Source: Flectonema sp. DT1601
Taxonomy: Eukaryota
Assembly: GCA_964019425.1 (NCBI GenBank)
Contig: OZ025786.1
Location: 372,001-436,000 of the forward strand
Direction: 5' to 3'
Length of the DNA stretch: 64,000 nucleotides
The notes beneath the pieces are model-generated. The model was not told the origin of the DNA and searched no databases. It worked only from the letters and a program-made list of their open reading frames with translations. Positions 26,809 to 53,939 of this stretch are shown here, in pieces. The stretch's first letter is position 1. Each line of letters starts with the position of its first letter. Made by a program: the position numbers and the translations under genes.

Positions 26809-27102
26809 CGCGTTTAGATCGACACTAGTTGTTTTTTACACAGACTATGAAATACGCGAACGACGTTTTTCAACGAAAAGTGATTGGCCAGTCTTCCTGG
26901 TTGCTAGAGTGCCTCAACACGTTCCCTTCGAAGTAAACATCACACGCGAGACTCGAATACGACGTACCGCTCATTAAGGACTTCACTGTTGCCTCCGAGT
27001 CAACTTCCTCATCTCTAATCCGATACTACGAACTATAACGTTCATTTTATTTTTTTGCTGGGTGTTTAAATTAAATGTGTTACTTGCTAACTTTCCTCAA
27101 CA
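26809..27102 (-). repeat. Fold-back inverted copy of ~26176-26560 with several internal deletions
   Basis: The reverse complement matches the preceding pseudogene start and its upstream sequence. Confidence 0.8.
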
Positions 27103-27390
27103 TTCCTTCAGGGGAGGGTTTAGTTGGAGGTGAGTGTGGATGGGCATCGCTGAATTTTGTTGTTAAGACTATCTTTATTTTAACCGAATAAATTTCAACT
27201 AAGTACAAGAACTGTAACAAGCGTTCTACGAGGAACACTAAAAAGGCAGAACCTGTCAACAATGGGAGCAAAAACCATCCCATGATGGCTGGTTCTCTTT
27301 AACCGTTCCAAATCCACTAGTACGTGGATCGCCGCATTCGTTTTAAACAAAGTTGGTGCACGAATGTCACACTACTTATCTCTTTTGATC
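27103..27390 (+). mobile_element. Diverged, frameshifted relic of the Josephin-like domain of the Penelope-like element
   Basis: Translates in pieces as SGEGLVGGECGWASLNF, QAFYEE, KPSHDGWFSL and AAFVLNKVGARMSHY, versus SGEGLLGGECGWASLNF, QRFYEE, KPSPDGWFSL and AALILHKAKTRMTHF at 47370-47700. Confidence 0.8.
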
Positions 27391-27565
27391 TCAACCGCAG
27401 CTACAGCTAGACATTTACGTGCGTTCCGGAAAATCCAATGTGCCAGGTTTTGTGAACCCGTTCACCCTCTACCACCGCATCCCAAGCAGATTAGGCACTG
27501 TCACGAGGTCCTGACTACAGCGGACTGATTAATTATTATTAATTAGAAAGGGGGGAGGGGATTTC

Positions 27566-29209: not shown

Positions 29210-30239
29210 GTTTTTCAACAATCACGCAAAATAACAATAAAAAATAAACTATTTTTGTATTTCATTAAAACGCAGACAGAATCCTGTCGCACACCATAGG
29301 AAATAACGGCTTTCAATCTCAACAGTTTCTTCTAGATCAGAGAATCGGCTGGCAAACTAAAACAAAAAGAGATCCAATTATGATGTTTATATTCTCGTAC
29401 AGGTTGTATTTTAATAAAACTATTAACCTCAAACTATGTCGGATTGAGATTCTTTTATGTCATGTGAGTCCGTATTAATGTCTTCGATCAACAAAATATA
29501 AGGCTTTATCTGAATTGTTTTTTCAATCCCTGGCTTTGAGTCCCTTATAATGTGACTAGTCATGAGGGTATTTTGATTTACATTTGTGACAGCTAGGGGG
29601 AGCGGAGCGTAGCGAGGGAATGGCACTTTGCCACTTACCGGCTGTTGACCGTAAATGCGAGTTATCACGTTTCCTTTTTGTTTTAGGTTTTTTGTTAGTG
29701 GTGAGATGTGCTACGTTTAAATATTTCATAACGTGTTTCGCCATCTTGAACAACTTTAAATACGTTTTCGTATCATCAAATACCAGTATATACGGCTATT
29801 GACAAAGAGCCGTCTTTTTCTATGGTTAATTTTCAAGACAATGTAATGTATTAATTAAGTACTCATGAGTTTTGTAAAAAGCTGTTACAGTAACATAGGC
29901 GAGTGGCGCTCAACTATGTTCACGTGGCCTCCAGTTATTATTTATTTATTTGCAGTCATTTACTACGCTGCCGCTGACAGTCAAGATTTTTCAGAGAAAT
30001 TGTTGTTCCTTTGAGCTTAAGAATGCAGTATCAAATCACCCCTTCCGTTACTTTTTGTTGAATGTGATCACCACTGGTCGAACCTTAAGAAATGTGATAC
30101 AGGTCATGTGCGATGATGTACAATGATGTTTTAATTGAAGAAAAAAAATTTAGTTCTTGGTTTTGGTTTTTCATTATTGGAATCTATGTCTTACCTGTGA
30201 CAACAACGTACAACGTACGAATCCGGGAAGACGACTGAT

Positions 30240-31260
30240 ACAGACACTGGCGAAGAAGGCAGCCTTGCAATCAGTTGATCCTGAACTGACTCCGTATGAT
30301 TTCAGGATGGCTCAATGTTGTATTAAGAAACAAGCAAATTGGAAGGCTATGGGTACTGTGGACTCTTCGCATTCTTACGGCAAAGCGACTCTAGGATCTG
30401 GCCCTCAACGTTTCCTTCCCTGTCTCAACTGGAGGCAGGAGGTGGAATTGTCTCGTCTGCGAACCTCTCACCACAGGCTTGTAAAGCTACCGAGGTCACT
30501 GCGGGTTTTAAATGTTGTCTGTTCTGTGGCTTTTCAGGAACTGAGCATCTGCTGCTTGTTTGCGTTGAGACCAGGGAATTGGTAAAGCAAACCATGAGAT
30601 CTCAGCGAGTGCGCTGACACCAGATGATGAGCTATCTCTGGATATGTTCTTTCGGACCGAATGGCAGCCTTTCACGTTGTTATTGATCATCTTAAAGAGT
30701 TATCTGACAATCCGTTATTGTTGAAGTTTCCGCTTCAGGGTATTTTTGTGAGGAAGAAACTAATCACGCACATCGAAAGGAAGACAAGTTTCTCGTTACT
30801 GGGTTCTGATGTGAAGGAATATGTTATGGAACTTATTGATAACGCTTATAAAGCTACCGATTTAAATGTTGTTATTGACGACCTTTCTATGGTTAATGTG
30901 CTGGTCAATCCTGACTGGTCGGAATCCAAGCTTTCTAAGTTCCCCTCTCGCTTAAGTCGCCTCCTGCGACGTAATGCCCGAGGTAGATAAAGAACGTCTC
31001 TTTCCTCTGGTGTAGCTTCTTATTTTATTTTATTAGTATCATTTCTCTTTCTTTGACGAAAATTGGTCATCAGCAGTCTCTAACACTGTCTGCTCGCGTG
31101 AACGGTGGGTTTAGGTAGTCATTTGTTCCAGGTTATTCTACGTCTCTTATCGTCTGTGAGAGTCTCACAGTTGCTGGTAGCGATATAACTGTTACCCTGT
31201 GAGCTTTTCCTGGCTTTTGGCTTCCTAGGCTTCGTAAATAAATAAATAAAAAATAAAAAA
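30240..31260 (+). mobile_element. 5'-truncated non-LTR retrotransposon 3' end (ingi/I-like), degenerate
   Basis: ELSRLRTSHHRL followed after a frameshift by CLFC..TEHLLLVC zinc knuckle; (taaa)n/A-rich tail 31235-31260; absent from the paralogous site at ~23200. Diverged ~23-bp duplication at 30217-30239 and 31490-31512. Confidence 0.7.
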
Positions 31261-31309
31261 CGTTGGGCCAGCGGGGTCAAAGTAAACCCTTCGATTAATT
31301 TTTAGTTTT

Positions 31310-31475
31310 GGTACTTGTCTACGGCTGGGTTGATTTAGTATACCACAAAATTCTTTTCTCGATTGTAGTGACAAGTACGTGATGTCAACCTCCCGAATCG
31401 GACGGAAATGAGCCGAACGATGCGGCGCAATAAAATTGCCGCTTCGATCGAAATTTTTATAATCTTTTTTTGAAA
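31310..31475. repeat. Structured dispersed repeat, also upstream of each HMG-box gene (~37375, 41153, 44856, 48398)
   Basis: ggtacttgtctacggctgggttgatttagta...gacaagta..gtcaacctcccga...ccgaacgatgcggc...tgccgc.tcgatcgaaatt is shared. Confidence 0.8.
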
Positions 31476-31781
31476 AAAGCTGTCATTTTACGAATCCTGA
31501 AAGACGTCTGATTGAATATCTTTGGGAAAGGTTGTATTCTGTTGTTGTTTTTCTTTTCTTTCTTTCTTTCTTTCTTCCAGATGTTAGGCTCCCTCTGGAC
31601 ATCATTCCCGCAACCCTTATCTACATCGAAAATAATTATTATTACAAAAGTCATTTCATTAATGATGTTGCACACAATTGTTTGAGGGAATCGACTATCA
31701 ACGACGAAGTTTATTAATGCAAATTAATATCAAGTAACATAATTATTTTAAACATTCAGCAAAACAAAACAGAACAGAACA

Positions 31782-32564
31782 ATGACAATGAACATTGAAG
31801 TTCGTATTATCGGATTAGAGACGAATACGTTTCCAGTTGGCTCGGAAACAACTATAAGGTCGTTGTTGAAATGTGCTTCTTGTTCAAGTCTCGTGTGTGA
31901 TGTCTATTTCGAAGGGAATATGTTGAAGTGCTCTAGCAAAGTTGTTGATTGTGGAATTTCTGGAGATGGTGAAATAGAAATCAGATTAACTGATGACCTG
32001 GAAAGACTGACCAAAGGTCTGTCACGTTACATATCAGAATCTATTTTCAACTTCAACGTTGGCGTGTATCGTAATCTGAGTAGAAATCTATCTCCCAATA
32101 CGACATATGAAGGGGAGAGTTTGATTTCAAGGTGTGTTGTCAAAGGCAACACTGACTGTTTGAGAGAAATGATAAATTCTACTGATGTCGATCTAAACAA
32201 ACGCAACGATGAAGATCAATCTCTGTTAAACCTGGCGATTGTTTACAAGAAAAACCAGGTGTTTGATCTTCTCAGCTCAAACGGGTGTGTTGCTATCAAG
32301 GCAGACATTCTCACCGCTTGTAATGTGTGCAACGAGTATGCATTTGATAAACTTATATCGAATTGTGTTGATGTTTATCATTTCTTGGGAATGAAAGACG
32401 TCAACGAGCTCATGATATGCGCTATTGAAAGAAAGAACACCCACATCTTCAATACTCTTGTTGCAAAGAATGCTAATGTCAGTCAGGAGATTCGTCAGGT
32501 TGCTGACGACAACAACTTCTCTTTGAATTACTGGCGTGTTGGTAGCTTTAACAGAACACTGTAG
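31782..32564 (+). CDS. Ubiquitin-like + ankyrin-like repeat protein (paralog B)
   Basis: Intact 260-aa ORF; its central part is identical to paralog A. Confidence 0.7.
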   Translation: MTMNIEVRIIGLETNTFPVGSETTIRSLLKCASCSSLVCDVYFEGNMLKCSSKVVDCGISGDGEIEIRLTDDLERLTKGLSRYISESIFNFNVGVYRNLSRNLSPNTTYEGESLISRCVVKGNTDCLREMINSTDVDLNKRNDEDQSLLNLAIVYKKNQVFDLLSSNGCVAIKADILTACNVCNEYAFDKLISNCVDVYHFLGMKDVNELMICAIERKNTHIFNTLVAKNANVSQEIRQVADDNNFSLNYWRVGSFNRTL

Positions 32565-35998: not shown

Positions 35999-36732
35999 CT
36001 TCCCCCCTTGGGAGTTTTGCTTTGGAAAAAAAAAAAAAAAAAAAAAAAAAGTTCGTTGATTAGTGTGAAATGAAATCGAAACTTCCCCTTGTGATAGCAA
36101 AGTTTGTCTTGTTTTTTGTTTTCGGGTAGTTGATTACTAAGGACGGTATCCTTCAACGCTCTCTTGTCTCTGTAGTAGCCTGGTAAATTAATGACAGAGC
36201 TGACGTACAGCCTGTTAAATTTGCGTTATCATTTGGGTTTTCTTTATATTCTTCGACTTTTCTTTTTATTTTCATCGTATTTAGATGATAAGAGGGGGGG
36301 GGTATCACGGAATTTTCTTTAATGAAATTAGTAACAATTCTGAAGACGTTTTACAACACACACTTGATTGTTAGGCGTTGTTTTCTTATCTGTGGCTTGC
36401 ATTGGAAGTGAGTTTTTTTTAAATTTCTTTTTTCTCAGATTAGTTAATTTCGTTTTGAATTTGAAAATATTTATCAGTCAAAATTATTTTTTGCAACCAA
36501 AAAAAAACACCATATTACCATTTTCTCACTGAGCAAGGTAATATGTTATTTTTGCTCGATTTTTTTTTTTTTTTGGAATCGGGGAGGGTGCGATCTGTCA
36601 AAATTGCATAGGAATGTGCTTTTAAACATAGATAGTGCTACTAAAAGGAGATTAATGTCTCTTTGCAATGATAAATGTTAATTCCGACCCTGGATTCATT
36701 GGAGAGATCGAGAAAATCTGAGTAAAAATCAC

Positions 36733-36931
36733 TTCTGGCTTAGAGGCGTTCAGCCATAATCCATCCAGTGGTAGCATCACGGCACTGTCCGATCAGACAA
36801 CCGTAGATACCAGGGACTAGAAACGGGAGTTCCTCTCGTACTACCCCGTATTGCTGTCGACATACACCGCCCCGAGGGAGTCTCTCTCCATCAGTAGGGT
36901 AAAACCAACCTGTCTCACGACGGTCTAACCC
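36733..36931 (-). pseudogene. LSU (28S) rRNA fragment (sarcin-ricin region)
   Basis: Minus strand ttagaccgtcgtgagacaggttggttttaccctactgatg...agtacgagaggaac...ggctgaacgcctctaagccagaa. Confidence 0.9.
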
Positions 36932-37034
36932 CTAATTTTGTTTTTTTTATTACTTCCTTTCTTCCCTCCTGCCCTCAAGAGATTACACTAAGGACTAACT
37001 AACTAGGTTCTAAGGGACTTCAATATAGAATGAC

Positions 37035-37104
37035 GTCCCTTAGAACTTACTGATGAAGGCCTAAAAAGGGACAAGTAGTATAAGATTAAGGCTCCTGGAA
37101 CTAC
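37035..37104 (+). ncRNA. Permuted hammerhead ribozyme copy with core mutation (GAAA to GGAA), probably impaired
   Basis: Same as the other copies but cctggaactac instead of cctgaaactac. Confidence 0.55.
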
Positions 37105-37644
37105 ATATTCTATTACCCTTTGATGTTAGGAAACTGCAGAAATGAGTACTTTTCTGTTACTAATCTCTACTTTTTATTCTCACTTTTCTATACTAAAATT
37201 AATAAAACTAGCTAACCAAGTTCTTCTTGGCGGAAACCAGAGCCTCATTCAGGATATCACCGAATAGTCTCAAAGTAAGTTCAAAAAGACTGGTAGTAAC
37301 AACCTGCTTCACTGGCACATGCTTAGTACTCTTTAATATATTTTTGCTCGATTTTTTTTCTCTGGATCCCGCTGGGTACTTGTCTATGGCTGGGTTGATT
37401 TAGTAAACCACAAAATTTCTTTTCCCGGTTTTGGCGACAAGTATGTGATGTCAACCTCCCGATTTCGTTCGGAAATGAACCGAACGATGCGGCATTAAAA
37501 TGCCGCCTCGACCGAAATTCTTACACCTTCTTTCGAAAATCCTTTTCATTTTCCAGAATTTGGTCGCAAAAAATAATTTTTACTGATTTTTTTTTTTGTT
37601 TTTATTAGATTTCAGTTTTCTTCTCTATACAGCCGACTGTGTCA

Positions 37645-38327
37645 ATGCAGGCCTCACGCCTTACGAGGTCAGCGATACATCTTTCCAGATGCAGAAGCTC
37701 TTGGCTGCAAACAAGAACGAAGCCTACGGCCATACCTGTAAGTTCGTCCACACCAGTAGATACCTCCCCGCCTGTGAGGCATAATACTGTACGGAATGCG
37801 AAGCGAAGAATGGAACGATTATTACGACTCCACGATGGGGAAGAGCCACAAGTAGAAAAGAAGAATTTACCTTGTACTCCGTTTGCGGCCTACGCACGCT
37901 CTCGAAGTAAAAATTTCAAAGAAGCTGCCGCAGGGTGGAGGGTATGTCATCATATCGGTTTTTTAAAAAAATGATAAAAATAATTTGCTGTTGGCTATGT
38001 TAAAAAACCTTGAGGCTTCACGAGGTCGTGCTTCCATAAGGCGCTGCTTACTAGCTGGTATACACAACCCGACCACAGGAGATGAGTGACACTGAGAAGG
38101 TTCCGTATTTTGAAGTGGCCAGCAAAAACAGGGCGAGTATGAAGCAGTGTGAAGCACCAAATAAAAGTAGGAACTCGTACGCGGCTTTTGTGAAAGCGAA
38201 TTATGGCGATGTACGTGCTAAAGTGATGGAAGAAAACAAATTCGATGAAGATAAAGTTTCTATCTATAAACAAACAATAAGAAGAGTTGCAATACTATAC
38301 AGAGAACAACACAGAGTAAATCGGTAA
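37645..38327 (+). CDS. HMG-box protein copy 1, possibly mitochondrial; exons 37645-37941, 38079-38327
   Basis: Phase-0 gtatgt..cacag intron joins PFAAY..FKEAAAGWR|EMSDTEKVPYFEVASKNR (HMG-box helices); second box-like NSYAAFVK..RRVAILY; Arg/Ser-rich, acid-free N-terminus; polypyrimidine-AG at 37631. Confidence 0.72.
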
Positions 38328-38535
38328 CGAATACTAATTAACAATACCGGATTCTACGAACACTGCACTGAGTGCACTCATTGAAATCATCATATCCAGT
38401 TGATCAATTTACATTAGAGCTCTGATAGTGTATTGACTAACATTGTATCTGCGTTGTTTTTTTTTTTTTTTTATAATACGAAATTATTATTATTATTATT
38501 ATTTATTTATTTTTTTAATTTTCAGAACGGAATAG

Positions 38536-39285
38536 ATGTCGAAGGATGCTGGTTGGCTAAATAACATCACCGACGGTTTAGAAAGTGAAAATAAAAGTGT
38601 TAAAGAAATTCCTGTTGGTGAAGTTAGATTTTACCCCTTCGGAACACCTGAATTTATAACATACGAGGAATTCTTACTGCTTCCAAGGTGTACTGATATT
38701 ACTTTGGAAGATGTAAGTGAGAGAAGTATTGAGGATGAAAAAATTCGAATTTTTGAAACTTTTCAAACAAAACGAGAACACGAACTTACCAACCACTGGG
38801 ATCTTCAAGAAATGCCGAATAATGAACCATCCTTCAAACATCATTCACTATTAGGAAAGATAGAATCGATGGTTTCAGCAACAATAAAATTTCTCGCTAT
38901 CTGGGGGGTCCTATACCTATTCATAATCGCATTAGGCATCATGGGCAACGCCTTTAAAGTTCTTGGTGGGAAGTCATCGGGCAAAACCTTCAGAGAAAGT
39001 TCCTTGTTATCTAACCCAGTGTCTGGTCTCTGTATAGGTATTTTAGCTACAGTATTAATGCAGTCGTCATCTACTACTACTTCTATAGTCATATCGATGG
39101 CAGCGTCTAACTTGGTTTCGGTGAAAAATGCTGCTAACTTAGTCATGGGTGCCAACATAGGTACATCTATAACTAACACTCTGGTTTCAATAGCTCACTT
39201 AAATAGTCCAGAGCAATATCGAAGAGCGTTTACCGCTGCTGTATTTCACGATATGTTTAACTGGCTTACGGTGTCAGTGTTTCTT
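38536..39285 (+). pseudogene. 5' fragment of the SLC34 gene (copy 1), interrupted by the retroelement
   Basis: Near-identical to 49549-50298, then switches to RT sequence. Confidence 0.9.
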
Positions 39286-40601
39286 AAATTGAAGCAAAAA
39301 ATCTAGACTTAGCTCGGCAACATGACCACTCGTGTAGATACATCGACGACTTCCTCACCTGGAGTTGTGACCCTCCACCAGCAAGCCTGTACTCAATGGA
39401 TTACACTGATACTTCAAATAATATCGATGACGTCTCTTATATAGGAATTTGTATCCGAATAGAGATCACTAACACGAATAAACGATGGATTCGTTTAAGT
39501 GTTAATGACAAAGCCAGGGGTTGGCATATTACGCCAACAAGGTTTACCCATCAGCATTCCGCAGCTCAAGAATCAATGGGTTCAGGTATCTTTACTACCA
39601 TGATTTTGCGAGCTTTAAAAAATTGCAACAATCAGGCAGATTTTTTACAAGAACTTGAAGCGGTAACATATAGATTACTCAACCGGGGCTGTAAATCTGA
39701 CAATATCAGAGCAGCATGCCTCCGCTTCATTAGCTCTCACATTGATGATGGTAATACTGCAGCTGCAATGCGTCGACGTATCAACCTTACTTTTGAGAAG
39801 TTTAGTCACAAAGTCCCATTAAGCATCGAAAAGGATACAATTAACCATACGGGCTCTGCAAGCCATTCCTTGGATAAACGATTTCCATCATCCCTACATC
39901 AAGCATCAGGAGAAGGTCTACTCGGTGGAGAATGCGGATGGGCATCGCTCAACTTCATTGCAGATCATTTATATATTGATAGAATTAGCTTTAGTTTTCT
40001 GCAAAACTACCAACAGAGATTTTATGAAGAATCTCTTAAAGTAGAACCGAACAACTCAGAGCATAAACCATCACCAGATGGTTGGTTCTCGCTACAAGTA
40101 CTTAACATGGCTTGCATGACCAAATTCAACAGGAGAATCGAGTACTTCGTTAACCCAGCAGATTTCGAATATCCTGATACAGCCGCAGCACTTATTCTGC
40201 ATAAAGCGAAAACAAGGATGACTCACTTCTATTGTTGCGCTGGTCTCATTTGAGTCCATCCGAGACATTCTTAAAGGCACAAAGGATTTAAGACTCCCTT
40301 TCGATCATTTTGACAAGATGTACCGAACTACAGAATATAGTTTCCATATGATACCATTAAAAGCTCAGACTGATATGGATGTTACAATGACACCTGCGAA
40401 TATAGGGCCTTTGATGGTATGCGAAGATAAAGTAAAACGCAAATTGGATGACGACTCAACCATTAACTCGACTGTAATAGTGAAACGACCAGACGTCAAA
40501 AATTCAAATTGAGCAAAAGCAAATAAACATTGCTAGCCCTATCCTGGCGAGCTCCGATGGATTTTTATCTTAGAACGATAGCAACTTCAACATAGAATGA
40601 A

Positions 40602-40671
40602 GTCCCTTAGAACTTACTGATGAAGGCCTAAAAAGGGACAAGTAGTATAAGATTAAGGCTCCTGAAACTAC
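40602..40671 (+). ncRNA. Non-circularly permuted hammerhead ribozyme (predicted cut after 40647)
   Basis: ctta-CTGATGA-agg ... gtagt-A-taag ... cct-GAA-actac: stems I, II and III all pair; extra helix gtccctt/aagggac. Confidence 0.72.
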
Positions 40672-40812
40672 ATATTCTATTACCCTTTGATGTTAGGAAA
40701 CTGTGGAAATGAATACTTTTCTTTTACTAATCTCTACTTTTCTTATTCTCACTTTTCTGTTCTAAAGTTAATGATACTAACTAGGTTCTAAGGGACTTCA
40801 ACATAGAATGAG

Positions 40813-40882
40813 GTCCCTTAGAACTTACTGATGAAGGCCTAAAAAGGGACAAGTAGTATAAGATTAAGGCTCCTGAAACTAC
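40813..40882 (+). ncRNA. Permuted hammerhead ribozyme, second tandem copy
   Basis: Identical core 211 nt downstream of the previous copy. Confidence 0.7.
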
Positions 40883-41421
40883 ATATTCTATTACCCTTTG
40901 ATGTTAGGAAACTGCAGAAATGAGTACTGTTCTTTTACTAATCTCTACTTTTTATTCTCACTTTTCTATACTAAAATTAATAAAACTAGCTAACCAAGTT
41001 CTTCTTGGCGGAAACCAGAGCCTCATTCAGGATATCACCGAATAGTCTCAAAGTAAGTTCAAAAAGACTGGTAGTAACAACCTGCTTCACTGGCACATGC
41101 TTAGTACTCTTTAATATATTTTTGCTCGATTTTTTTTCTCTGGATCCCGCTGGGTACTTGTCTACGGCTGGGTTGATTTAGTAAACCACAAAATTTCTTT
41201 TCTCGGTTTTGTCGACAAGAATGTAATGTCAACCTCCCGATTTCGTTCGGAAATGAACCGAACGATGCGGCATTAAAATGCCGCCTCGATCGAAATTTTT
41301 ACACCTTCTTTCGAAAATCCTTTTCATTTTCCAGCATTTGGTCGCAAAAAATAATTTTTACTGATTTTTTTTTTGTTTTTATTGGATTTCAGTTTTCTTC
41401 TCTATACAGCCGACTGTGTCA

Positions 41422-42095
41422 ATGCAGGCCTCACGCCTTACGAGGTCAGCGATACATCTTTCCAGATGCAGAAGCTCTTGGCTGCAAATAAGAACGAAGC
41501 CTACGGCCATACCTGTAAGTTCGTCCACACTAATAGATACCTCCCCGCCTGTGAGGCATAATATTGTACGGAATGCGAAGCGAAGAATGGAACGATTATT
41601 ACGACTCCACGATGGGGAAAAGCCACAAGTAGAAAAGAAGAATTTACCTTGTACTGCGTTTGCGGCCTACGTACTCTCTCGAAGTAAAAATTTCAAAGAA
41701 GCTGCCGCAGGGTGGAGGGTATGTCATCATATCGGTTTTTTAAAAAAATGATAAAAATAATTTGCTGTTGGCTATATTAAAAAACCTTGAGGCTTCACGA
41801 GGTCGTGCTTCCATAAGGCGCTGCTTACTAGCTGGTATACACAACCCGACCACAGGAGATGAGTGACACTGAGAAGGTTCCGTATTTTGAAGTGGCCAGC
41901 AAAAACAGGGCGAGTATGAAGCAGTGTGGAGTACCAACGAACTCGTACGCGGCTTTTGTGAAATCGAATTTTGGCGATGTACGTGCTAAAGTGGTGGAAG
42001 AAAACAAATTCGATAAAGATAAAGTTTCTATCTTTAAACAAACATTAAGAAGAGTTGCAATACTATACAGAGAACACCACAGAGTAAATCGGTAA
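41422..42095 (+). CDS. HMG-box protein copy 2; exons 41422-41718, 41856-42095
   Basis: Same structure as copy 1; intact frame and splice sites. Confidence 0.72.
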
Positions 42096-42301
42096 CGAAT
42101 ACTAATTAACAATACCGGATTCTACGAACACTGCACTGAGTGCACTCATTGAAATCATCATACGCAGTTGATCAATTTACATTAGAGCTCTGATAGTGTA
42201 TTGACTAACATTGTATCTGCGTTGCTTTTTTTTTTTTTATAATACGAAATTATTATTATTATTATTATTTATTTATTTTTTTAATTTTCAGAACGGAATA
42301 G

Positions 42302-42999
42302 ATGTCGAAGGATGCTGGTTGGCTAAATAACATCACCGACGGTTTAGAAAGTGAAAATAAAAGTGTTAAAGAAATTCCTGTTGGTGAAGTTAGATTTTAC
42401 CCCTTCGGAACACCTGAATTTATAACATACGAGGAATTCTTACTGCTTCCAAGGTGTACTGATATTACTTTGGAAGATGTAAGTGAGAGAAGCATTGAGG
42501 ATGAAAAAATTCGAATTTTTGAAACTTTTCAAACAAAACGAGAACACGAACTTACCAACCACTGGGATCTTCAAGAAATGCCGAATAATGAACCATCCTT
42601 CAAACATCATTCACTATTAGGAAAGATAGAATCGATGGTTTCAGCAACAATAAAATTTCTCGCTATCTGGGGGGTCCTATACCTATTCATAATCGCATTA
42701 GGCATCATGGGCAACGCCTTTAAAGTTCTTGGTGGGAAGTCATCGGGCAAAACCTTCAGAGAAAGTTCCTTGTTATCTAACCCAGTGTCTGGTCTCTGTA
42801 TAGGTATTTTAGCTACAGTATTAATGCAGTCGTCATCTACTACTACTTCTATAGTCATATCGATGGCAGCGTCTAACTTGGTTTCGGTGAAAAATGCTGC
42901 TAACTTAGTCATGGGTGCCAACATAAGTACATCTATAACTAACACTCTGGTTTCAATAGCTCACTTAAGTTTAACTGGCTTACGGTGTCAGTGTTTCTT
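42302..42999 (+). pseudogene. 5' fragment of the SLC34 gene (copy 2) with a 52-bp deletion
   Basis: Lacks the equivalent of 39203-39254. Confidence 0.9.
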
Positions 43000-44819
43000 A
43001 AATTGAAGCAAAAAATCTAGACTTAGCTCGGCAACATGACCACTCGTGTAGATACATCGACGACTTCCTCACCTGGAGTTGTGACCCTCCACCAGCAAGC
43101 CTGTACTCAATGGATTACACTGATACTTCAAATAATATCGATGACGTCTCTTATATAGGAATTTGTATCCGAATAGAGATCACTAACACAAATAAACGAT
43201 GGATTCGTTTAAGTGTTAACGACAAAGCCAGGGGTTGGCATATTACACCAACAAGGTTTACCCATCAGCATTCCGCAGCTCAAGAATCAATGGGTTCAGG
43301 TATCTTTACTACCATGATCTTGCGAGCTTTAAAAATTTGCAACAATCAGGCAGATTTTTTACAAGAACTTGAAGCGGTAACATATAGATTACTCAACCGG
43401 GGCTGTAAATCTGACAATATCAGAGCAGCATGCCTCCGCTTCATTAGCTCTCACATTGATGATGGTAATACTGCAGCTGCAATGCGTCGACGTATCAACC
43501 TTACTTTTGAGAAGTTTAGTCACAAAGTCCCATTAAGCATCGAAAAGGATACAATTAACCATACGGGCTCTGCAAGCCATTCCTTGGATAAACGATTTCC
43601 ATCATCCCTACATCAAGCATCAGGAGAAGGTCTACTCGGTGGAGAATGCGGATGGGCATCGCTCAACTTCATTGCAGATCATTTATATATTGATAGAATT
43701 AGCTTTAGTTTTCTGCAAAACTACCAACAGAGATTTTATGAAGAATCTCTTAAAGTAGAACCGAACAACTCAGAGCATAAACCATCACCAGATGGTTGGT
43801 TCTCGCTACAAGTACTTAACATGGCTTGCATGACCAAATTCAACAGGAGAATCGAGTACTTCGTTAACCCAGCAGATTTCGAATATCCTGATACAGCCGC
43901 AGCACTTATTCTGCATAAAGCGAAAACAAGGATGACTCACTTCTATTGTTGCGCTGGTCTCATTTGAGTCCATCCGAGACATTCTTAAAGGCACAAAGGA
44001 TTTAAGACTCCCTTTCGATCATTTTGACAAGATGTACCGAACTACAGAATATAGTTTCCATATGATACCATTAAAAGCTCAGACTGATATGGATGTTACA
44101 ATGACACCTGCGAATATAGGGCCTTTGATGGTATGCGAAGATAAAGTAAAACGCAAATTGGATGACGACTCAACCATTAACTCGACTGTAATAGTGAAAC
44201 GACCAGACGTCAAAAATTCAAATTGAGCAAAAGCAAATAAACATTGCTAGCCCTATCCTGGCGAGCTCCGATGGATTTTTATCTTAGAACGATAGCAACT
44301 TCAACATAGAATGAAGTCCCTTAGAACTTACTGATGAAGGCCTAAAAAGGGACAAGTAGTATAAGATTAAGGCTCCTGAAACTACATATTCTATTACCCT
44401 TTGATGTTAGGAAACTGTGGAAATGAATACTTTTCTTTTACTAATCTCTACTTTTCTTATTCTCACTTTTCTGTTCTAAAGTTAATGATACTAACTAGGT
44501 TCTAAGGGACTTCAACATAGAATGAGGTCCCTTAGAACTTACTGATGAAGGCCTAAAAAGGGACAAGTAGTATAAGATTAAGGCTCCTGAAACTACATAT
44601 TCTATTACCCTTTGATGTTAGGAAACTGCAGAAATGAGTACTGTTCTTTTACTAATCTCTACTTTTTATTCTCACTTTTCTATACTAAAATTAATAAAAC
44701 TAGCTAACCAAGTTCTTCTTGGCGGAAACCAGAGCCTCATTCAGGATATCACCGAATAGTCTCAAAGTAAGTTTAAAAAGACTGGTAGTAACAACCTGCC
44801 TCACTGGCACTCTTTAATA
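43000..44819 (+). mobile_element. Penelope-like element copy 2 (hammerheads at 44316-44385 and 44527-44596)
   Basis: Near-identical to copy 1. Confidence 0.8.
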
Positions 44820-45123
44820 TATTTTTGCTCGATTTTTTTTCTCTGGATCCCGCTGGGTACTTGTCTACGGCTGGGTTGATTTAGTAAACCATAAAATTTC
44901 TTTTCTCGGTTTTGTCGACAAGAATGTAATGTCAACCTCCCGATTTCGTTCGGAAATGAACCGAACGATGCGGCATTAAAATGCCGCCTCGATCGAAATT
45001 TTTACACCTTCTTTCGAAAATCCTTTTCATTTTCCAGCATTTGGTCGCAAAAAATAATTTTTACTGATTTTTTTTTGTTTTTATTGGATTTCAGTTTTCT
45101 TCTCTATACAGCCGACTGTGTCA

Positions 45124-45797
45124 ATGCAGGCCTCACGCCTTACGAGGTCAGCGATACATCTTTCCAGATGCAGAAGCTCTTGGCTGCAAACAAGAACGAA
45201 GCCTACGGCCATACCTGTAAGTTCGTCCACACTAGTAGATACCTCCCCGCCTGTGAGGCATAATATTGTACGGAATGCGAAGCGAAGAATGGAACGATTA
45301 TTACGACTCCACGATGGGGAAAAGCCACAAGTAGAAAAGAAGAATTTACCTTGTTCTCCGTTTGCGGCCTACGTACTCTCTCGAAGTAAAAATTTCAAAG
45401 AAGCTGCCGCAGGGTGGAGGGTATGTCATCATATCGGTTTTTTAAAAAAATGATAAAAATAATTTGCTGTTGGCTATATTAAAAAACCTTGAGGCTTCAC
45501 GAGGTCGTGCTTCCATAAGGCGCTGCTTACTAGCTGGTATACACAACCCGACCACAGGAGATGAGTGACACTGAGAAGGTTCCGTATTTTGAAGTGGCCA
45601 GCAAAAACAGGGCGAGTATGAAGCAGTGTGGAGTACCAACGAACTCGTACGCGGCTTTTGTGAAATTGAATTTTGGCGATGTACGTGCTAAAGTAGTGGA
45701 AGAAAACAAATTCGATAAAGATAAAGATTCTATCTTTGGAAAAACATTAAGAAGAGTTGCAATACTATACAGAGAACACCACAGAGTAAATCGGTAA
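45124..45797 (+). CDS. HMG-box protein copy 3; exons 45124-45420, 45558-45797
   Basis: Same structure as copy 1; intact. Confidence 0.72.
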
Positions 45798-46003
45798 CGA
45801 ATACTAATTAACAATACCGGATTCTACGAACACTGCACTGAGTGCACTCATTGAAATCATCATACGCAGTTGATCAATTTACATTAGAGCTCTGATAGTG
45901 TATTGACTAACATTGTATCTGCGTTGCTTTTTTTTTTTTTATAATACGAAATTATTATTATTATTATTATTTATTTATTTTTTTAATTTTCAGAACGGAA
46001 TAG

Positions 46004-46753
46004 ATGTCGAAGGATGCTGGTTGGCTAAATAACATCACCGACGGTTTAGAAAGTGAAAATAAAAGTGTTAAAGAAATTCCTGTTGGTGAAGTTAGATTTT
46101 ACCCCTTCGGAACACCTGAATTTATAACATACGAGGAATTCTTACTGCTTCCAAGGTGTACTGATATTACTTTGGAAGATGTAAGTGAGAGAAGCATTGA
46201 GGATGAAAAAATTCGAATTTTTGAAACTTTTCAAACAAAACGAGAACACGAACTTACCAACCACTGGGATCTTCAAGAAATGCCGAATAATGAACCATCC
46301 TTCAAACATCATTCACTATTAGGAAAGATAGAATCGATGGTTTCAGCAACAATAAAATTTCTCGCTATCTGGGGGGTCCTATACCTATTCATAATCGCAT
46401 TAGGCATCATGGGCAACGCCTTTAAAGTTCTTGGTGGGAAGTCATCGGGCAAAACCTTCAGAGAAAGTTCCTTGTTATCTAACCCAGTGTCTGGTCTCTG
46501 TATAGGTATTTTAGCTACAGTATTAATGCAGTCGTCATCTACTACTACTTCTATAGTCATATCGATGGCAGCGTCTAACTTGGTTTCGGTGAAAAATGCT
46601 GCTAACTTAGTCATGGGTGCCAACATAGGTACATCTATAACTAACACTCTGGTTTCAATAGCTCACTTAAATAGTCCAGAGCAATATCGAAGAGCGTTTA
46701 CCGCTGCTGTATTTCACGATATGTTTAACTGGCTTACGGTGTCAGTGTTTCTT
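46004..46753 (+). pseudogene. 5' fragment of the SLC34 gene (copy 3)
   Basis: Same junction as copies 1 and 2. Confidence 0.9.
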
Positions 46754-48361
46754 AAATTGAAGCAAAAAATCTAGACTTAGCTCGGCAACATGACCACTCG
46801 TGTAGATACATCGACGACTTCCTCACCTGGAGTTGTGACCCTCCACCAGCAAGCCTGTACTCAATGGATTACACTGATACTTCAAATAATATCGATGACG
46901 TCTCTTATATAGGAATTTGTATCCGAATAGAGATCACTAACACAAATAAACGATGGATTCGTTTAAGTGTTAACGACAAAGCCAGGGGTTGGCATATTAC
47001 ACCAACAAGGTTTACCCATCAGCATTCCGCAGCTCAAGAATCAATGGGTTCAGGTATCTTTACCACCATGATCTTGCGAGCTTTAAAAATTTGCAACAAT
47101 CAGGCAGATTTTTTACAAGAACTTGAAGCGGTAACATATAGATTACTCAACCGGGGCTGTAAATCTGACAATATCAGAGCAGCATGCCTCCGCTTCATTA
47201 GCTCTCACATTGATGATGGTAATACTGCAGCTGCAATGCGTCGACGTATCAACCTTACTTTTGAGAAGTTTAGTCACAAAGTCCCATTAAGCATCGAAAA
47301 GGATACAATTAACCATACGGGCTCTGCAAGCCATTCCTTGGATAAACGATTTCCATCATCCCTACATCAAGCATCAGGAGAAGGTCTACTCGGTGGAGAA
47401 TGCGGATGGGCATCGCTCAACTTCATTGCAGATCATTTATATATTGATAGAATTAGCTTTAGTTTTCTGCAAAACTACCAACAGAGATTTTATGAAGAAT
47501 CTCTTAAAGTAGAACCGAACAACTCAGAGCATAAACCATCACCAGATGGTTGGTTCTCGCTACAAGTACTTAACATGGCTTGCATGACCAAATTCAACAG
47601 GAGAATCGAGTACTTCGTTAACCCAGCAGATTTCGAATATCCTGATACAGCCGCAGCACTTATTCTGCATAAAGCGAAAACAAGGATGACTCACTTTATT
47701 GTTGCGCTGGTCTCATTTGAGTCCATCCGAGACATTCTTAAAGGCACAAAGGATTTAAGACTCCCTTTCGATCATTTTGACAAGATGTACCGAACTACAG
47801 AATATAGTTTCCATATGATACCATTAAAAGCTCAGACTGATATGGATGTTACAATGACACCTGCGAATATAGGACCTTTGATGGTATGCGAAGATAAAGT
47901 AAAACGCAAATTGGATGACGACTCAACCATTAACTCGACTGTAATAGTGAAACGACCAGACGTCAAAAATTCAAATTGAGCAAAAGCAAATAAACATTGC
48001 TAGCCCTATCCTGGCGAGCTCCGATGGATTTTTATCTTAGAACGATAGCAACTTCAACATAGAATGAAGTCCCTTAGAACTTACTGATGAAGGCCTAAAA
48101 AGGGACAAGTAGTATAAGATTAAGGCTCCTGAAACTACATATTCTATTACCCTTTGATGTTAGGAAACTGCAGAAATGAGTACTGTTCTTTTACTAATCT
48201 CTACTTTTTATTCTCACTTTTCTATACTAAAAATAATAAAACTAGCTAACCAAGTTCTTCTTGGCGGAAACCAGAGCCTCATTCAGGATATCACCGAATA
48301 GTCTCAAAGTAAGTTTAAAAAGACTGGTAGTAACAACCTGCCTCACTGGCACTCTTTAATA
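46754..48361 (+). mobile_element. Penelope-like element copy 3: open frame ~46756-47979, single hammerhead 48069-48138
   Basis: YIDD at 46807-46818; RT thumb and Josephin-like domain in one uninterrupted frame; candidate catalytic Cys 47401-47403 and His 47692-47694. Confidence 0.82.
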
Positions 48362-48666
48362 TATTTTTGCTCGATTTTTTTTCTCTGGATCCCGCTGGGT
48401 ACTTGTCTACGGCTGGGTTGATTTAGTAAACCATAAAATTTCTTTTCTCGGTTTTGGCGACAAGTATGTGATGTCAACCTCCCGATTTCGTTCGGAAATG
48501 AACCGAACGATGCGGCATTAAAATGCCGCTGCGATCGAAATTTTTACATCTTTTTTCGAAAATCCTTTTCATTTTCCAGAATTTGGTCGCAAAAAATAAT
48601 TTTTACTGATTTTTTTTTTGTTTTTATTGGATTTCAGTTTTCTTCTCTATACAGCCGACTGTGTCA

Positions 48667-49340
48667 ATGCAGGCCTCACGCCTTACGAGGTCAGCGATAC
48701 ATCTTTCCAGATGCAGAAGCTCTTGGCTGCAATCAAGAACGAAGCCTACGGCCATACCTGTAAGTTCGTCCACACTAATAGATACCTCCCCGCCTGTGAG
48801 GCATAATATTGTACGGAATGCGAAGCGAAGAATGGAACGATTATTACGACTCCACGATGGGGAAGAGCCACAAGTAGAAAAGAAGAATTTACCTTGTACT
48901 GCGTTTGCGGCCTACGTACTCTCTCGAAGTAAAAGTGTCACAGAAGCTGCCGCAGGGTGGAGGGTATGTCATCATATCGGTTTTTTAAAAAAATGATAAA
49001 AATAATTTGCTGTTGGCTATATTAAAAAACCTTGAGGCTTCACGAGGTCGTGCTTCCATAAGGCGCTGCTTACTAGCTGGTATACACAACCCGACCACAG
49101 GAGATGAGTGACACTGAGAAGGTTCCGTATTTTGAAGTGGCCAGCAAAAACAGGGCGAGTATGAAGCAGTGTGGAGTACCAACGAACTCGTACGCGGCTT
49201 TTGTGAAATTGAATTTTGGCGATGTACGTGCTAAAGTAGTGGAAGAAAACAAATTCGATAAAGATAAAGTTTCTATCATTAAACAAACATTAAGAAGAGT
49301 TGCAATACTATACAGAGAACAACACAGAGTAAATCGGTAA
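48667..49340 (+). CDS. HMG-box protein copy 4; exons 48667-48963, 49101-49340
   Basis: Same structure as copy 1; intact. Confidence 0.72.
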
Positions 49341-49548
49341 CGAATACTAATTAACAATACCGGATTCTACGAACACTGCACTGAGTGCACTCATTGAAAT
49401 CATCATACGCAGTTGATCAATTTACATTAGAGCTCTGATAGTGTATTGACTAACATTGTATCTGCGTTGCTTTTTTTTTTTTATAATACGAAATTATTAT
49501 TATTATTATTATTATTTATTTATTTTTTTAATTTTCAGAACGGAATAG

Positions 49549-52500
49549 ATGTCGAAGGATGCTGGTTGGCTAAATAACATCACCGACGGTTTAGAAAGTG
49601 AAAATAAAAGTGTTAAAGAAATTCCTGTTGGTGAAGTTAGATTTTACCCCTTCGGAACACCTGAATTTATAACATACGAGGAATTCTTACTGCTTCCAAG
49701 GTGTACTGATATTACTTTGGAAGATGTAAGTGAGAGAAGCATTGAGGATGAAAAAATTCGAATTTTTGAAACTTTTCAAACAAAACGAGAACACGAACTT
49801 ACCAACCACTGGGATCTTCAAGAAATGCCGAATAATGAACCATCCTTCAAACATCATTCACTATTAGGAAAGATAGAATCGATGGTTTCAGCAACAATAA
49901 AATTTCTCGCTATCTGGGGGGTCCTATACCTATTCATAATCGCATTAGGCATCATGGGCAACGCCTTTAAAGTTCTTGGTGGGAAGTCATCGGGCAAAAC
50001 CTTCAGAGAAAGTTCCTTGTTATCTAACCCAGTGTCTGGTCTCTGTATAGGTATTTTAGCTACAGTATTAATGCAGTCGTCATCTACTACTACTTCTATA
50101 GTCATATCGATGGCAGCGTCTAACTTGGTTTCGGTGAAAAATGCTGCTAACTTAGTCATGGGTGCCAACATAGGTACATCTATAACTAACACTCTGGTTT
50201 CAATAGCTCACTTAAATAGTCCAGAGCAATATCGAAGAGCGTTTACCGCTGCTGTATTTCACGATATGTTTAACTGGCTTACGGTGTCAATGTTTCTTCC
50301 CCTCGAAGCCTCTTGTGGGTTTCTTGTTGAAATTGCAGGTGCTGCAGTTGACAGTATGGCTCTTGGAGGCAAACATCAAAAAACTGAATTTATAAAAACA
50401 ATAACGAACCCAGCTACTGGCAGAGTAGTATCAGTTGACAACGGATTGATTGAAAAGATTGCTGAAGCACGCACTAGCAAAGAAGTAGCCGATCTTGAAA
50501 AGATTTCAATCATTAAGAAGAAATCAGGATTTGTCCTTCGAGACACCCCACAATCTGATAGTGAAGCCGGCATACTATTGCTCGTTGTCGCTATAACAAT
50601 GCTTTGTACATGTTTGCTTCTTTTAGTTAAGTTATTGCAATCTGTTTTGAAAGGTAAGGTAGCTGTGTACACTAGGAAGGTATTAAATCTCGATTTTCAA
50701 CATAAATATTTAAAAATGTTCGGAGGCCTTGATAACTACATTCTTCTATTTGTCGGAACTGGAATGACTGTTTTGGTTCAGTCCAGTTCCGTATTCACAT
50801 CAACGTTAACGCCTCTGGTTGGAATCGGGTTAATTCACATTGAAAAGGTTGTGGCATTGACTCACGGAGCAAATATTGGAACTACAGTCACAGGTGTAAT
50901 ATCAGCCCTTGCTGGTGATAATGTTGTAATAGGTATGCGTGTTGCTCTAGAACACGTTTTATTCAATTGTCTCGGCACAGTCATCTGGTTCGTTATTTGG
51001 CCTCTTCGCCCTGTGCCTCTCGCTGCTGCGAAATTCTTAGGCGACACGGCCTCAAACTTACGTTGGTTTCCATTTGCCTACATCATTGTTTGCTTTATAA
51101 TAGTTCCTGTAGTGGTTATTGCTCTTTCGATTCCAGGATGGCAGGTACTGTTGGCAGTTGGTCTTCCTATCCTTCTCGCTATATTATTCATCACTGGTTG
51201 GACATGGGTGAGAAGAAACAGAGCTGACTTACTACCACGTGGAGGGTGTCTGAGATCTGATGTTTCTCTCTGCGGGTGTAAATATCCGAACTGGATGCAA
51301 GTTTGGGGAGGAGACCGCAGTCAAGACAATGTCGATATGGAAGAAATGAAAAGAAAAGAAGCTAAGGCAGAGTCCGACAAGGTAACTGAGTGGCCATTGT
51401 CTCCAACGGCATGGGGCCTTGGTACCTTATCTCTTCTTGGACTCTTGCTGGCTATCCCAACTGCACAATGGAGGCGTATCCGTTATGCGAATGAAACTCG
51501 TGGAAGAAAGGAATATGGTTTTGGTCTCTGGGAAATCTGTTCTGATGACTTTACTAAGGATTCTCAATGGGCTACTACACCTCCCTTATGTAATCAAGAG
51601 CAGATAAATGACTGCGCAAAGGACTTATCTCGCAGCTGCACAACTAAAAGCTGGGCTGATACATCCCTTCCAACTATGCATGAGAATGATATGTATGAGA
51701 GCACTTGGAAGACCTGTTCAAAACTTGGGTGTCGAGTGTCGGATTGGTTGAAATACTGTCCAGACATTAGTAATTGTTCTTTAGGTAATTATCACTCTAG
51801 TCGATGTATTGAAGTAGTTGATAATTATGAATTTCATAAACACAATCAAATGGATTTGAATGATGTTACTTACTCATATCCGGGAGACGATCCTGGAGCG
51901 CTGACACCTCCGCTGGAGAGAACCCCAACACATGCTAGCGTTTTTTTCTCTGGTGTTTCTAACAGTTACTCAGTATCGACGTTTCTTGTTGCCCCAAAAA
52001 TGATTAATACCATTAACGGAGAGAATGCATCTTGTGCTGACTGCACTGAAACATGTGCCAACTCCAGCATTGGAAAGTTTTGTACTGATGCTCCAAGTAT
52101 CACTGGTATTGCATACGATTACTGCTCTGGGGATTTCCTTATTGTTTCTGGACGAGGTCCAGCTTCAGAATGCAGCATCGGAACTATTTTCCCTTTCTCA
52201 TCATTTACACCATCAATATCAGTGATGACCCTCACAGTTGGTAAGAATTCACAATCTAATTCAGCTATTCTAAAAGAGAGAACACCATTAGCATATTACA
52301 ATAACAACAACACTGTTACTTTTGCTTCAGGTCTACCTAATGTGAAAGAATGGTACTCACCATTGCCTATTGATGATTGTCTTGGTGAGCAGGATGTTAA
52401 TGATGTTGGTATCGGTATCAACATAAATGATATTCACATCCTTCAATACCATAATAATACTACAGAAGGTGTGTATGTGGGTTCTGATGAGTATGAGGCA

Positions 52501-53939
52501 AAAATAGTTTTTTGGAACCATGATGGCGAAATCATTGCTACCTACTCTCCTCAAAAGACAAAAAACAACAGCACTCAACCCAACGGAATCCACATTGAAA
52601 TCCTGCCTAGTGAATTTGGATCACGGAATAGAGAAAGTGGAAGAATAACAATGGCAATTAATGCGAATAAAACTAAAATGGTAGTCTGTTCAGGTGTTGG
52701 TGGTAGTAGTCCTGTCGTAGCTTGTGCCATGCTGGGTATCAGTAACTTCACTCAACCAGACTTATTAGGTACAAAAATTGTACTTCACAACGAAGCATCT
52801 GCTGAATACAACACCAACGTCAGAGGTAGAAGCTCAAAGCAAGGAGATGTAAACTTTGTTTCTGCTCAATGGCTCCGCAATGGTAGGATTCTATTTCTAG
52901 AACAGGGAAAAGTATGTGACGTTTCCCCTTTTTTTTAAAAAAACATCAAATCGGAAAATAAATTTAACACCCCCAACAGTTTTCTGAAAACAAACTCGGA
53001 GGTACTTTATATATCGCTGATTTCGAAACAGGAAATGATATTTCCCTTCCAAGTAGCACTTCGTTAGATACCATAAAAAAAGCTTCTGTAAGAGTGGTAA
53101 TGAATGACTTGAAAACGAGTGAATTGAAATTTGAAGCAGATCCACAAGCATATGTTAATCTTGCAAAGATTAGTGCCCGACCAGTAAATATGGAAAAGCT
53201 AATGGATCTCAATGATATTGACGACGATGCTAAAGGCTTCATGAAATCATCTCCAATAGGAGCGATGCATATCCTAAATGAATACAGCCTTGTACTCGGT
53301 GAAGACAACAGTTTTGGAATAACTGGACAATCATATTCAAAAGTCCATATAATAAATTTAACTAATAAATTACTAACAGATACTACTGTTTGCTCATTGC
53401 CATCAAAAACCAAACCAAAGATAATTAAGGGAACTCAAAACTGTCGACTCATTTCATCAGTGTGCCCTGAAGGGGGTCTCGCTAGAGACATGCAATCGAT
53501 TGCCGGGGTCGTTATAACTGCAGCTGTTCTTTTATTCATCGGTCTTGTTGCAGTAGCTGCTTATGGTCGTTCAAAAAAAGCATCGATTGGTATTTATGTA
53601 GCAGCTTTGTGCTTCAGTGTTTGCTGGATTCTTCTTCTTGTTGCATGGGTTAGAGTTTCTACACTAGAAGGCAATAGATATACTTGTATGTTCCAAGATG
53701 AAGCACTACGTGGTGGGGTTGTGTTGCTGTCTGGAAGATTTGGTGTTATGACTATGCAGAGCTACTCCTGGGCATTCACTATCTTCTCTTGGGGAATGCT
53801 AACGATATCATTAGTTGCTGTGTTGCAACATGTCGTTGTTAAGTTTCGACAACGACGGCCATCAGTTCATCACCTTAAGGAGAATTCTTCAATGCCCTTT
53901 ATGGATGATTCTATACACGAATCTACAATTCTTAGTTGA
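49549..53939 (+). CDS. SLC34/NaPi-II sodium-phosphate cotransporter fused to a claudin/amastin-like 4-TM region with a large Cys-rich loop; exons 49549-52911, 52980-53939 (~1440 aa)
   Basis: Two QSSS repeats and GANIGT motifs; a phase-0 gtatgt..caacag intron joins the two ORFs; W..GLWEIC after one TM and three further TMs at the C-terminus. Confidence 0.85.

Follow-up and report, generated by a model that had tools for sequence, protein, structure and literature searches.

A truncated, triplicated Chlamys-type Penelope-like element with a predicted Josephin-fold protease and a predicted permuted hammerhead in its pseudo-LTR

The tandem array and its surroundings

The window analysed here, a single stretch of 64 kb, carries on its plus strand three near-identical copies of a Penelope-like retroelement (PLE) in tandem, at 39286, 43000 and 46754 (Table 1). 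This tandem structure is directly observed: all three copies begin at a common 5' junction inside the reverse transcriptase (RT), and the first two have 98.6% and 98.9% DNA identity to the third. The 407-aa open frame of copy 3 contains every one of the RT, thumb and protease motifs that an earlier note on this DNA had quoted from one frame, namely RYIDD at residue 17, VSYIGI at 49, HSAA at 90, LHQ at 203, ECGW at 215, DGWF at 264 and THFIV at 312. Because there are two further copies and because database proteins match the frame at 97% and 66%, it is not a chance frame. Copies 1 and 2 have one extra base immediately past the His codon, and therefore only copy 3 is open to its end; copy 3 is itself without two residues directly before the Asp, compared with the full-length relative P0016, and a contig from sequencing run X2 has six additional bases after 47723 compared with copy 3. 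Since the window copies retain no endonuclease and only a minor part of the RT, their sequence indicates that they cannot transpose on their own. The earlier note had placed the element at 46754..48361; a PLE does lie there, but its 3' end probably falls near 48250, short of 48361, judging by the points at which copies 1 and 2 are replaced by the following unit (40783 and 44497). The same note overlooked both the triplication and the predicted permuted hammerhead of the pseudo-LTR.

Table 1. Features of the array, in window coordinates. Site counts refer to 38 family proteins examined, only those covering each site being counted.
Feature	Position	Strand	Basis or remark
Degenerate piece of a related family's protease domain	27096..27313	+	tblastn 44-51%; translation
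Solo pseudo-LTR opening the array	36998..37214	+	adjoins CTAACTAA; 5' fold-back hairpin; GAAA block reads GGAA
PLE copy 1	39286..40783	+	shared 5' junction; frameshift past His codon; then second pseudo-LTR 40776-40992
PLE copy 2	43000..44497	+	same 5' junction and frameshift as copy 1; then second pseudo-LTR 44490-44706
Duplicated 5' part of host Na+/Pi cotransporter gene, interrupted by the insertion	46004..46753 (also 38536-39285, 42302-42999)	+	out of frame with PLE ORF
5'-truncated Chlamys-type PLE ORF, copy 3 (RT motifs 5-7, thumb, predicted Josephin-fold domain, short tail)	46756..47979	+	matches last ~409 aa of P0016
RT catalytic motif RYIDD	46804..46818	+	motif in ORF translation
RT thumb region, begins HSAA, end approximate	47023..47280	+	precomputed PF26215 on relatives; many RT-thumb matches
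Predicted Josephin-fold cysteine protease domain	47329..47832	+	model of equivalent P0016 stretch; top matches JOSD2, ataxin-3-like
Predicted catalytic Cys216	47401..47403	+	12/13 rows of alignment A6
Predicted catalytic His313	47692..47694	+	12/13 A6 rows; His in 20/21 family proteins covering the site
Predicted third catalytic residue Asp326	47731..47733	+	12/13 A6 rows; Asp in 22/22 family proteins covering the site
Pseudo-LTR unit of ~200 bp, probably the 3' terminus of the element	48051..48250	+	
Predicted type-CSG hammerhead	48069..48138	+	block order C-S-G, strand complementarity
Predicted CSG extra helix, 7 bp	48069-75/48100-06	+	joins stem I and stem II sides; shuffle fraction 0.005
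Predicted CSG stem I, 4 bp	48080-83/48115-18	+	
CSG core CUGAUGA	48084-90	+	
Predicted CSG stem II, bulged	48091-96 with part of 48119-30	+	
Predicted CSG stem III	48109-13/48134-38	+	
CSG core GAAA	48131-34	+	
Predicted cleavage site, GUA triplet	after 48114	+	
Intact host Na+/Pi cotransporter ORF, ends the array	49549..52938	+	PF02690, E 5.3e-30

Upstream of each copy is a duplicate of the 5' part of the Na+/Pi cotransporter gene, and the intact gene closes the array. An in-frame fusion of the transporter and PLE ORFs was considered and is ruled out by the frames, which differ in all three units. The junction of the solo pseudo-LTR at 36998 recurs after copies 1 and 2. How could such an array arise? 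We suggest that one insertion duplicated about 2.3 kb of host DNA, that unequal crossing-over then gave three units, and that, on the simplest path, two pseudo-LTRs would have collapsed to one in unit 3; for Dualen insertions, the available part of PMC9977147 gives duplications of median 900 bp. With copies 98-99.7% identical one could suppose instead that the assembly had made three units out of one insertion, yet the host segments differ by 14-46 substitutions, a 50-bp deletion occurs in unit 2 only, the frameshift is common to copies 1 and 2, and pseudo-LTR number differs between copies (one versus two). We consider such an artefact quite improbable and treat the triplication as genuine.

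Several further observations concern the surroundings. An LSU rRNA fragment (Rfam E 1.2e-24) lies on the minus strand at 36728-36928, some 70 bp ahead of the first pseudo-LTR, with part of it again at 15217-15345, and is probably a dispersed piece of rDNA. CTAA repeats adjoin two independent 5' junctions, one in the window (36995-37002) and one at a loose end at 47974 in a contig of run X3, and are possibly a target preference. The intact cotransporter ORF has a long Cys-rich C-terminal extension, and 30 bp past it a same-strand ORF with no Pfam match (52968-53939) may form one gene with it. The region 21838-32564 consists of rearranged direct and inverted repeats with fragments of ubiquitin-like/ankyrin ORFs and the degenerate PLE piece at 27096-27313.

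As to the host, an ORF at 10539 matches the N-terminal domain of BILBO1 (PDB E 3.7e-15; Pfam E 2.3e-5, which is under the cut-off), a domain family that we take to be euglenozoan, and for this reason we infer that the host is likely a euglenozoan and perhaps a diplonemid. We found no report in the literature of a PLE in Diplonema or other diplonemids, the word 'Penelope' is absent from the main text of the D. papillatum genome paper, and in the available sections of Craig et al. (PMC8557442) we found no mention of euglenozoans.

A Chlamys-type element and its C-terminal domain

Our homologue search yielded four proteins among 2206 candidates, whose clusters have 59, 24, 1 and 1 members and include proteins of 1350, 1279 and 1367 aa; a search among longer proteins scored none of 3029 candidates, though cluster members do include longer proteins. 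P0016 (1350 aa) differs from the window ORF by 13 substitutions and one 2-aa gap, and P0020 (1367 aa) is 63% identical. In both, the motifs run VIYALF..VYVGQT, R/H/E/N, CxC, GQKF, DKG, DFTTMY, GIPMG, RYIDD, and the domain order of the full-length relatives can be read directly, from N to C terminus, as GIY-YIG core, CxC, GQKF, DKG, RT, thumb and C-terminal domain. The GIY-YIG region of P0016 (aa 238-335) has the R, H, E and N, has no Cys between GIY and YIG, and is without CCHH and CX2-5CxxC; in the relatives it matches Pfam PF01541 weakly (best E 0.007) and resembles by eye the endonuclease of Chlamys-1_cBra. Upstream of the RT, P0016 has the CxC linker, GxKF and DK motifs (CNC at 560, GQKF at 596, DKG at 679), and the stretch from DFTTMY to GIPMG, where Chlamys-type PLEs have an insertion in the fingers between RT3 and RT4, measures 74 aa, about 20 fewer than in Chlamys-1_cBra by eye.

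The earlier note had recognised a Penelope-like RT, which is borne out and is of Chlamys type, given the motif order in the full-length relatives and an RT tree built without named references or an outgroup, in which 50 of 70 rows were kept (14 named redundant rows and rows below 270 aa were dropped). On this tree the window family falls in a 35-row clade (96/98) together with P0053 and P0058, whose DK-motif region reads like that of Chlamys-1_cBra, while a 12-row Naiad-like clade is separate. Partial tandems, pseudo-LTRs and 5' truncation are all present at the window locus, as in Chlamys-type PLEs. The GIY-YIG endonuclease is absent from the truncated window copy, and the note had correctly expected any endonuclease to lie in the missing 5' part, as both full-length relatives carry it at the N terminus. 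Because they keep it, the protease is no stand-in for the endonuclease; the relatives have both. They show no APE match, having GIY-YIG instead, which separates them from Dualen/RandI. Nor is the joining of RT and Josephin new to PLEs, as the note had implied: Craig et al. 2021 (PMC8557442, section 9 and File S1, available in part) already list three Chara braunii families, Chlamys-1, -4 and -6, with a C-terminal Josephin-like domain, reporting for the C-terminal extension of Chlamys-1_cBra a weak homology to Josephin and citing Dualen LINEs as precedent. Two collected proteins are of separate interest: P0122 (1748 aa), an APE-RT LINE protein in Dualen-like arrangement with an N-terminal homologue of the Josephin-like domain, and P0036 (2811 aa), in which the prediction combines a kinesin motor and a GIY-YIG/RT PLE ORF, probably through fusion of an inserted element into the gene model.

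For the C-terminal domain, the window protein alone matches neither a Pfam Josephin nor a Pfam RT model, gives no useful sequence match in the PDB, and when folded alone reaches a pLDDT of only 34, so that its assignment to Josephin and RT depends on relatives. Neither the window protein nor its family reaches the PF02099 cut-off, which the homologues P0051, P0058, P0121, P0148, P0048 and P0128 pass; a HMMER scan gave 113 matches, and the first round of iteration with the domain within the collected proteins brought in P0121 (E 1.4e-7) and P0051 (E 1.8e-4). The equivalent stretch of P0016, modelled with a 13-row alignment that includes Josephin-positive relatives, has pLDDT 90.7 and pTM 0.88. 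Foldseek returns five matches to this model at E<=0.001, all five Josephins, and among 48,161 chains VIA-align places JOSD2 first (Z 13.0, rmsd 2.5, 128 aligned) and ataxin-3-like at Z 12.7, the best non-Josephin being at Z 8.9; the bacterial 'clippase' Josephins PcJOS, BpJOS and PaJOS are also among the top matches, at ranks 3, 4 and 7. Against the PDB the domain profile has six matches, of which the best four are forms of ataxin-3 (E 0.013-0.5). The profile without Pfam-positive relatives (A4) finds no Josephin in the PDB, its hhalign comparison with the Chara-like pair (A5) gives 14.9% probability and E 0.0018, and the ESM Atlas gave no usable match. The Josephin-like protease of the earlier note is thus upheld by structure prediction, a check that note had proposed, through relatives and with no direct PF02099 match. 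The note had found no clear third catalytic residue; the 13-row alignment predicts Asp326. The Cys-His-Asp triad, in A6 columns C27, H124 and D139, is seen directly as sequence conservation, with exceptions such as Ser for Cys in P0080 and Arg for His in P0008. Modelling and alignment together thus predict the C-terminal domain to be a Josephin-fold Cys-His-Asp protease.

What might such a protease do? A shared fold does not by itself give the substrate. Related PLEs, however, have USP or Ulp1 proteases in the same C-terminal slot: a Pfam scan of 60 related proteins and ORFs, hand-picked for long tails or domain matches, gave 12 USP (PF00443), 2 Ulp1 (PF02902) and 6 Josephin domains above cut-off. 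On the RT tree the USP and Josephin labels are intermixed (3 and 4 changes), and USP domains occur in both the Chlamys-like and the Naiad-like clade. Specifically, a C-terminal USP above cut-off follows a PLE RT at loci L007, L013, L015, L020 and L021 and, across both clades, in proteins P0040, P0041, P0045, P0047, P0059, P0064 and P0075, and an Ulp1/SENP-type protease follows it at L009:367-1836 and in P0084. In a limited literature search, including the accessible part of PMC9940879, we found no earlier report of such USP/Ulp1 exchange.

Three families that process ubiquitin-like modifiers have thus been reused in one slot, which favours deconjugation over self-processing, and the domain likely removes ubiquitin. 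Could it rather cut the element's own polyprotein, in the manner of papain-like proteases from RNA viruses? One ORF joins it to the endonuclease and RT, and viral papain-like proteases are among the lower structural matches (Z 6.2-7.5); yet the top matches are deubiquitinases, and the USP and Ulp1 families found in the same slot of relatives recognise a ubiquitin-like fold and not a linear site, so that we think self-processing quite improbable. Somewhat less improbable, though still unlikely, is that the domain targets another modifier (NEDD8, SUMO or UFM1), clips ubiquitin irreversibly like the bacterial Josephins, or only binds ubiquitin. Identity to solved Josephins is 11-15%, the three bacterial Josephins rank high, two relatives have Ulp1-type domains, and P0080 and P0008 have lost a catalytic residue to Ser and Arg. 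The triad is nevertheless kept across two families that are about 65% identical in the domain, and the eukaryotic JOSD2 and ataxin-3-like stand 3 Z units above the bacterial Josephins. We therefore retain ubiquitin removal as the likely function.

Predicted permuted hammerheads in pseudo-LTRs

The pseudo-LTR unit of about 200 bp recurs in the window at 37017, 40584, 40795, 44298, 44509 and 48051. In the unit, 40 nt separate CUGAUGA from GAAA, the cleavage-site strand falls within this interval, and the stretch 48069-48138 contains the CUGAnGA, GAAA and UH core together with stems I-III, in C-S-G order; this strand order and the complementarity of the strands are direct observations. From them we predict that the pseudo-LTR holds a non-circularly permuted hammerhead of type CSG. 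A strict descriptor gives five CSG matches in the window, all in pseudo-LTRs, versus none in five shuffles. A canonical hammerhead is absent, as in Chlamys-type PLEs: Rfam finds no hammerhead in 36000-49500, and a descriptor for six strand orders finds only CSG in the window. The CSG motif has a non-circular strand order, which is detected neither by Rfam nor by the type I descriptors that Craig et al. used.

The CSG reading is weakened by the bulge in stem II and by the shortness of stem I, at 4 bp. Contigs of runs X1 and X2 are without the two bulged bases of stem II and that of run X3 keeps them; the evidence on ribozyme variation within the family comes from these contigs, and the sequencing runs contain only small shares (0.05-0.18). 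A marine metatranscriptome contig covers 47477-48175 at about 95%, indicating neither expression nor habitat. Minimum-energy folding, a method that cannot model pseudoknots, does not yield the CSG structure. At the 5' junction of second-type pseudo-LTRs there is a fold-back hairpin of about 18 bp (37005-37048, 40783-40826, 44497-44540), which would sequester the extra-helix strand and part of stem I in the hammerhead of that unit.

Could the CSG topology go unused, with the strands of adjacent pseudo-LTRs forming an ordinary type I, II or III ribozyme, or with the motif a decayed relic? The pseudo-LTRs of copies 1 and 2 lie in tandem at a spacing of 211 bp, so that the blocks are available in circular order; stem II comes close to a palindrome, dimeric cleavage is reported for PLE hammerheads, and in the solo pseudo-LTR the core is mutated at 37050. 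However, in all four CSG cases only 0-5 bases link the 3' strand of stem I to the 3' strand of stem II, and the extra helix is significant in the window and in locus L023 (shuffle fraction 0.004), though not in L008 (0.77) or L010 (0.075); a comparable helix is described for CSG ribozymes in the accessible part of Eckert et al. (PMC10085705). A pairing between pseudo-LTRs or a relic appears to us a possible but doubtful explanation, and we keep to the predicted CSG hammerhead.

Related elements bear similar motifs. From metagenomes, 31 loci were picked by RT similarity, 27 of them with at least 400 bp past the RT match; a first metagenome scan for relatives had given none in 181 stretches, and a scan of viral contigs none in 32. 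A looser descriptor gives 14 matches on the sense strand downstream of the RT (7 SGC, 3 CSG, 3 CGS, 1 SCG), with none antisense, one upstream, and averages of 0.09 and 0.12 for the two controls; CSG or SGC motifs so placed occur in 10 of the 31 loci. The SGC motifs are L002:4095, L006:3391, L007:4694, L013:2027, L015:3022, L020:1901 and L021:1941, with a stem II of only 2-3 bp and, in six of the seven, offsets; the CSG motifs are L008:2930, L010:3480 and L023:1696, with stems II of 6-10 bp. The match L001:3275 scores as SCG and is also readable as SGC, and canonical type I hammerheads lie near more distant RTs at L025:2670, L028:2503 and L029:2057. With the strict scan the loci give one SGC match (L006), L008, L010 and L023 being missed. 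Across 11 permuted matches, positions 1-4 of stem I and 2-4 of stem III each show 3-4 pair types, pairing being required by the descriptor, and the structure did not emerge from a MAFFT alignment of the four loci with CSG motifs.

Craig et al. report Naiad and Chlamys elements as having no hammerheads, leave open how they thrive, and note, unexplained, 'half cores' 35-50 nt apart in them (PMC8557442, available in part). Permuted motifs would account for this apparent lack; in 30 excerpts from the supplement of that paper, read by eye, Naiad consensus sequences carry close to their ends patterns of SGC type (places 28-31, 37, 40, 41) and of CSG type (34, 35). Type CSG itself was described by Eckert et al. 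2023 from two similar metagenomic sequences, both of which cleave, their role being unstated; in the accessible text and supplement of that paper 'Penelope' occurs in the references only (PMC10085705). In literature mostly outside subscription journals, we found no report linking permuted hammerheads with PLEs.

A combined model and its relation to known systems

Thus we propose, with fair though incomplete confidence, that the window holds a truncated, triplicated Chlamys-type PLE whose protease likely removes ubiquitin and whose pseudo-LTR carries a predicted CSG hammerhead, which would cleave the RNA of the element. In intact relatives a single protein combines a GIY-YIG endonuclease, a CxC linker, an RT and a predicted Josephin-fold protease. 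The endonuclease would nick the target, and the RT would copy the RNA from its 3' end, often halting early and so leaving 5'-truncated copies. The protease would trim ubiquitin off the element's protein, or off host factors at the insertion site, which could protect against degradation or silencing. The hammerhead would cut after 48114 and so set an end of the RNA freed from tandem or read-through transcripts, a role in RNA-end formation that has been proposed for the canonical hammerheads of other PLEs.

More generally, we lean, if less firmly, towards the view that the whole Naiad/Chlamys branch uses CSG/SGC hammerheads in its pseudo-LTRs and has repeatedly exchanged Josephin, USP and Ulp1 domains at a single C-terminal position to counter host control by ubiquitin and SUMO. 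If so, these elements would be a main genomic home of non-circularly permuted hammerheads, and three unrelated families of ubiquitin or ubiquitin-like proteases in one slot would point to a common host pressure. Permuted hammerheads that act would both answer how Naiad and Chlamys elements thrive and give type-CSG ribozymes a eukaryotic role. While the RT-Josephin fusion is known, our analysis adds a structural model, a full predicted triad and a likely new host lineage; for the likely euglenozoan host, the exchange of USP and Ulp1 in the slot and the predicted CSG hammerhead in a PLE pseudo-LTR our literature searches gave no earlier report.

How does this element compare with known systems? 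It is closest in plan to Chlamys-1, -4 and -6_cBra, with which it shares the N-terminal GIY-YIG without CCHH, the CxC motif, the RT and the C-terminal Josephin-like domain, as well as pseudo-LTRs, 5' truncation and the lack of a canonical hammerhead. However, the full-length ORF has 1350 aa versus about 1770-1940 aa in the Chara families, the second Cys/His-rich C-terminal motif is missing, the RT3-RT4 insertion appears shorter by eye, the host is likely euglenozoan, the RT is not sister to Chara-like rows, and the pseudo-LTR has a type-CSG hammerhead motif; moreover, only weak Josephin homology was reported for Chara, whereas the present family has a structural model and a triad. With Dualen/RandI LINEs it shares a retroelement ORF bearing a Josephin-related cysteine protease, but Dualen combines APE and RLE endonucleases with a LINE RT, while here the protease is C-terminal to GIY-YIG and a PLE RT.

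Like the Josephin deubiquitinases (JOSD2, 6pgv; ataxin-3-like, 3o65; ataxin-3, 2dos; and PcJOS, BpJOS and PaJOS), the domain has the predicted fold, the Cys-His-Asp order and the GxFSxQVL helix; unlike them, it is fused to a retroelement, at 10-16% identity, under Pfam detection. In ataxin-3 the oxyanion-hole residue lies 5 before the Cys, whereas in the present family the alignment suggests that it is likely a Glu, 7 before the Cys. The predicted ribozyme, finally, resembles the type-CSG/SGC hammerheads of Eckert et al. in its C-S-G block order, full core, stems I-III and the helix joining the stem I and II sides, but it is predicted from sequence and lies in a eukaryotic retrotransposon pseudo-LTR. 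With the canonical type I hammerheads of Penelope/Poseidon, Neptune and Hydra PLEs it shares the 3' pseudo-LTR, the sense strand and the same core, and differs from them in its non-circular strand order.
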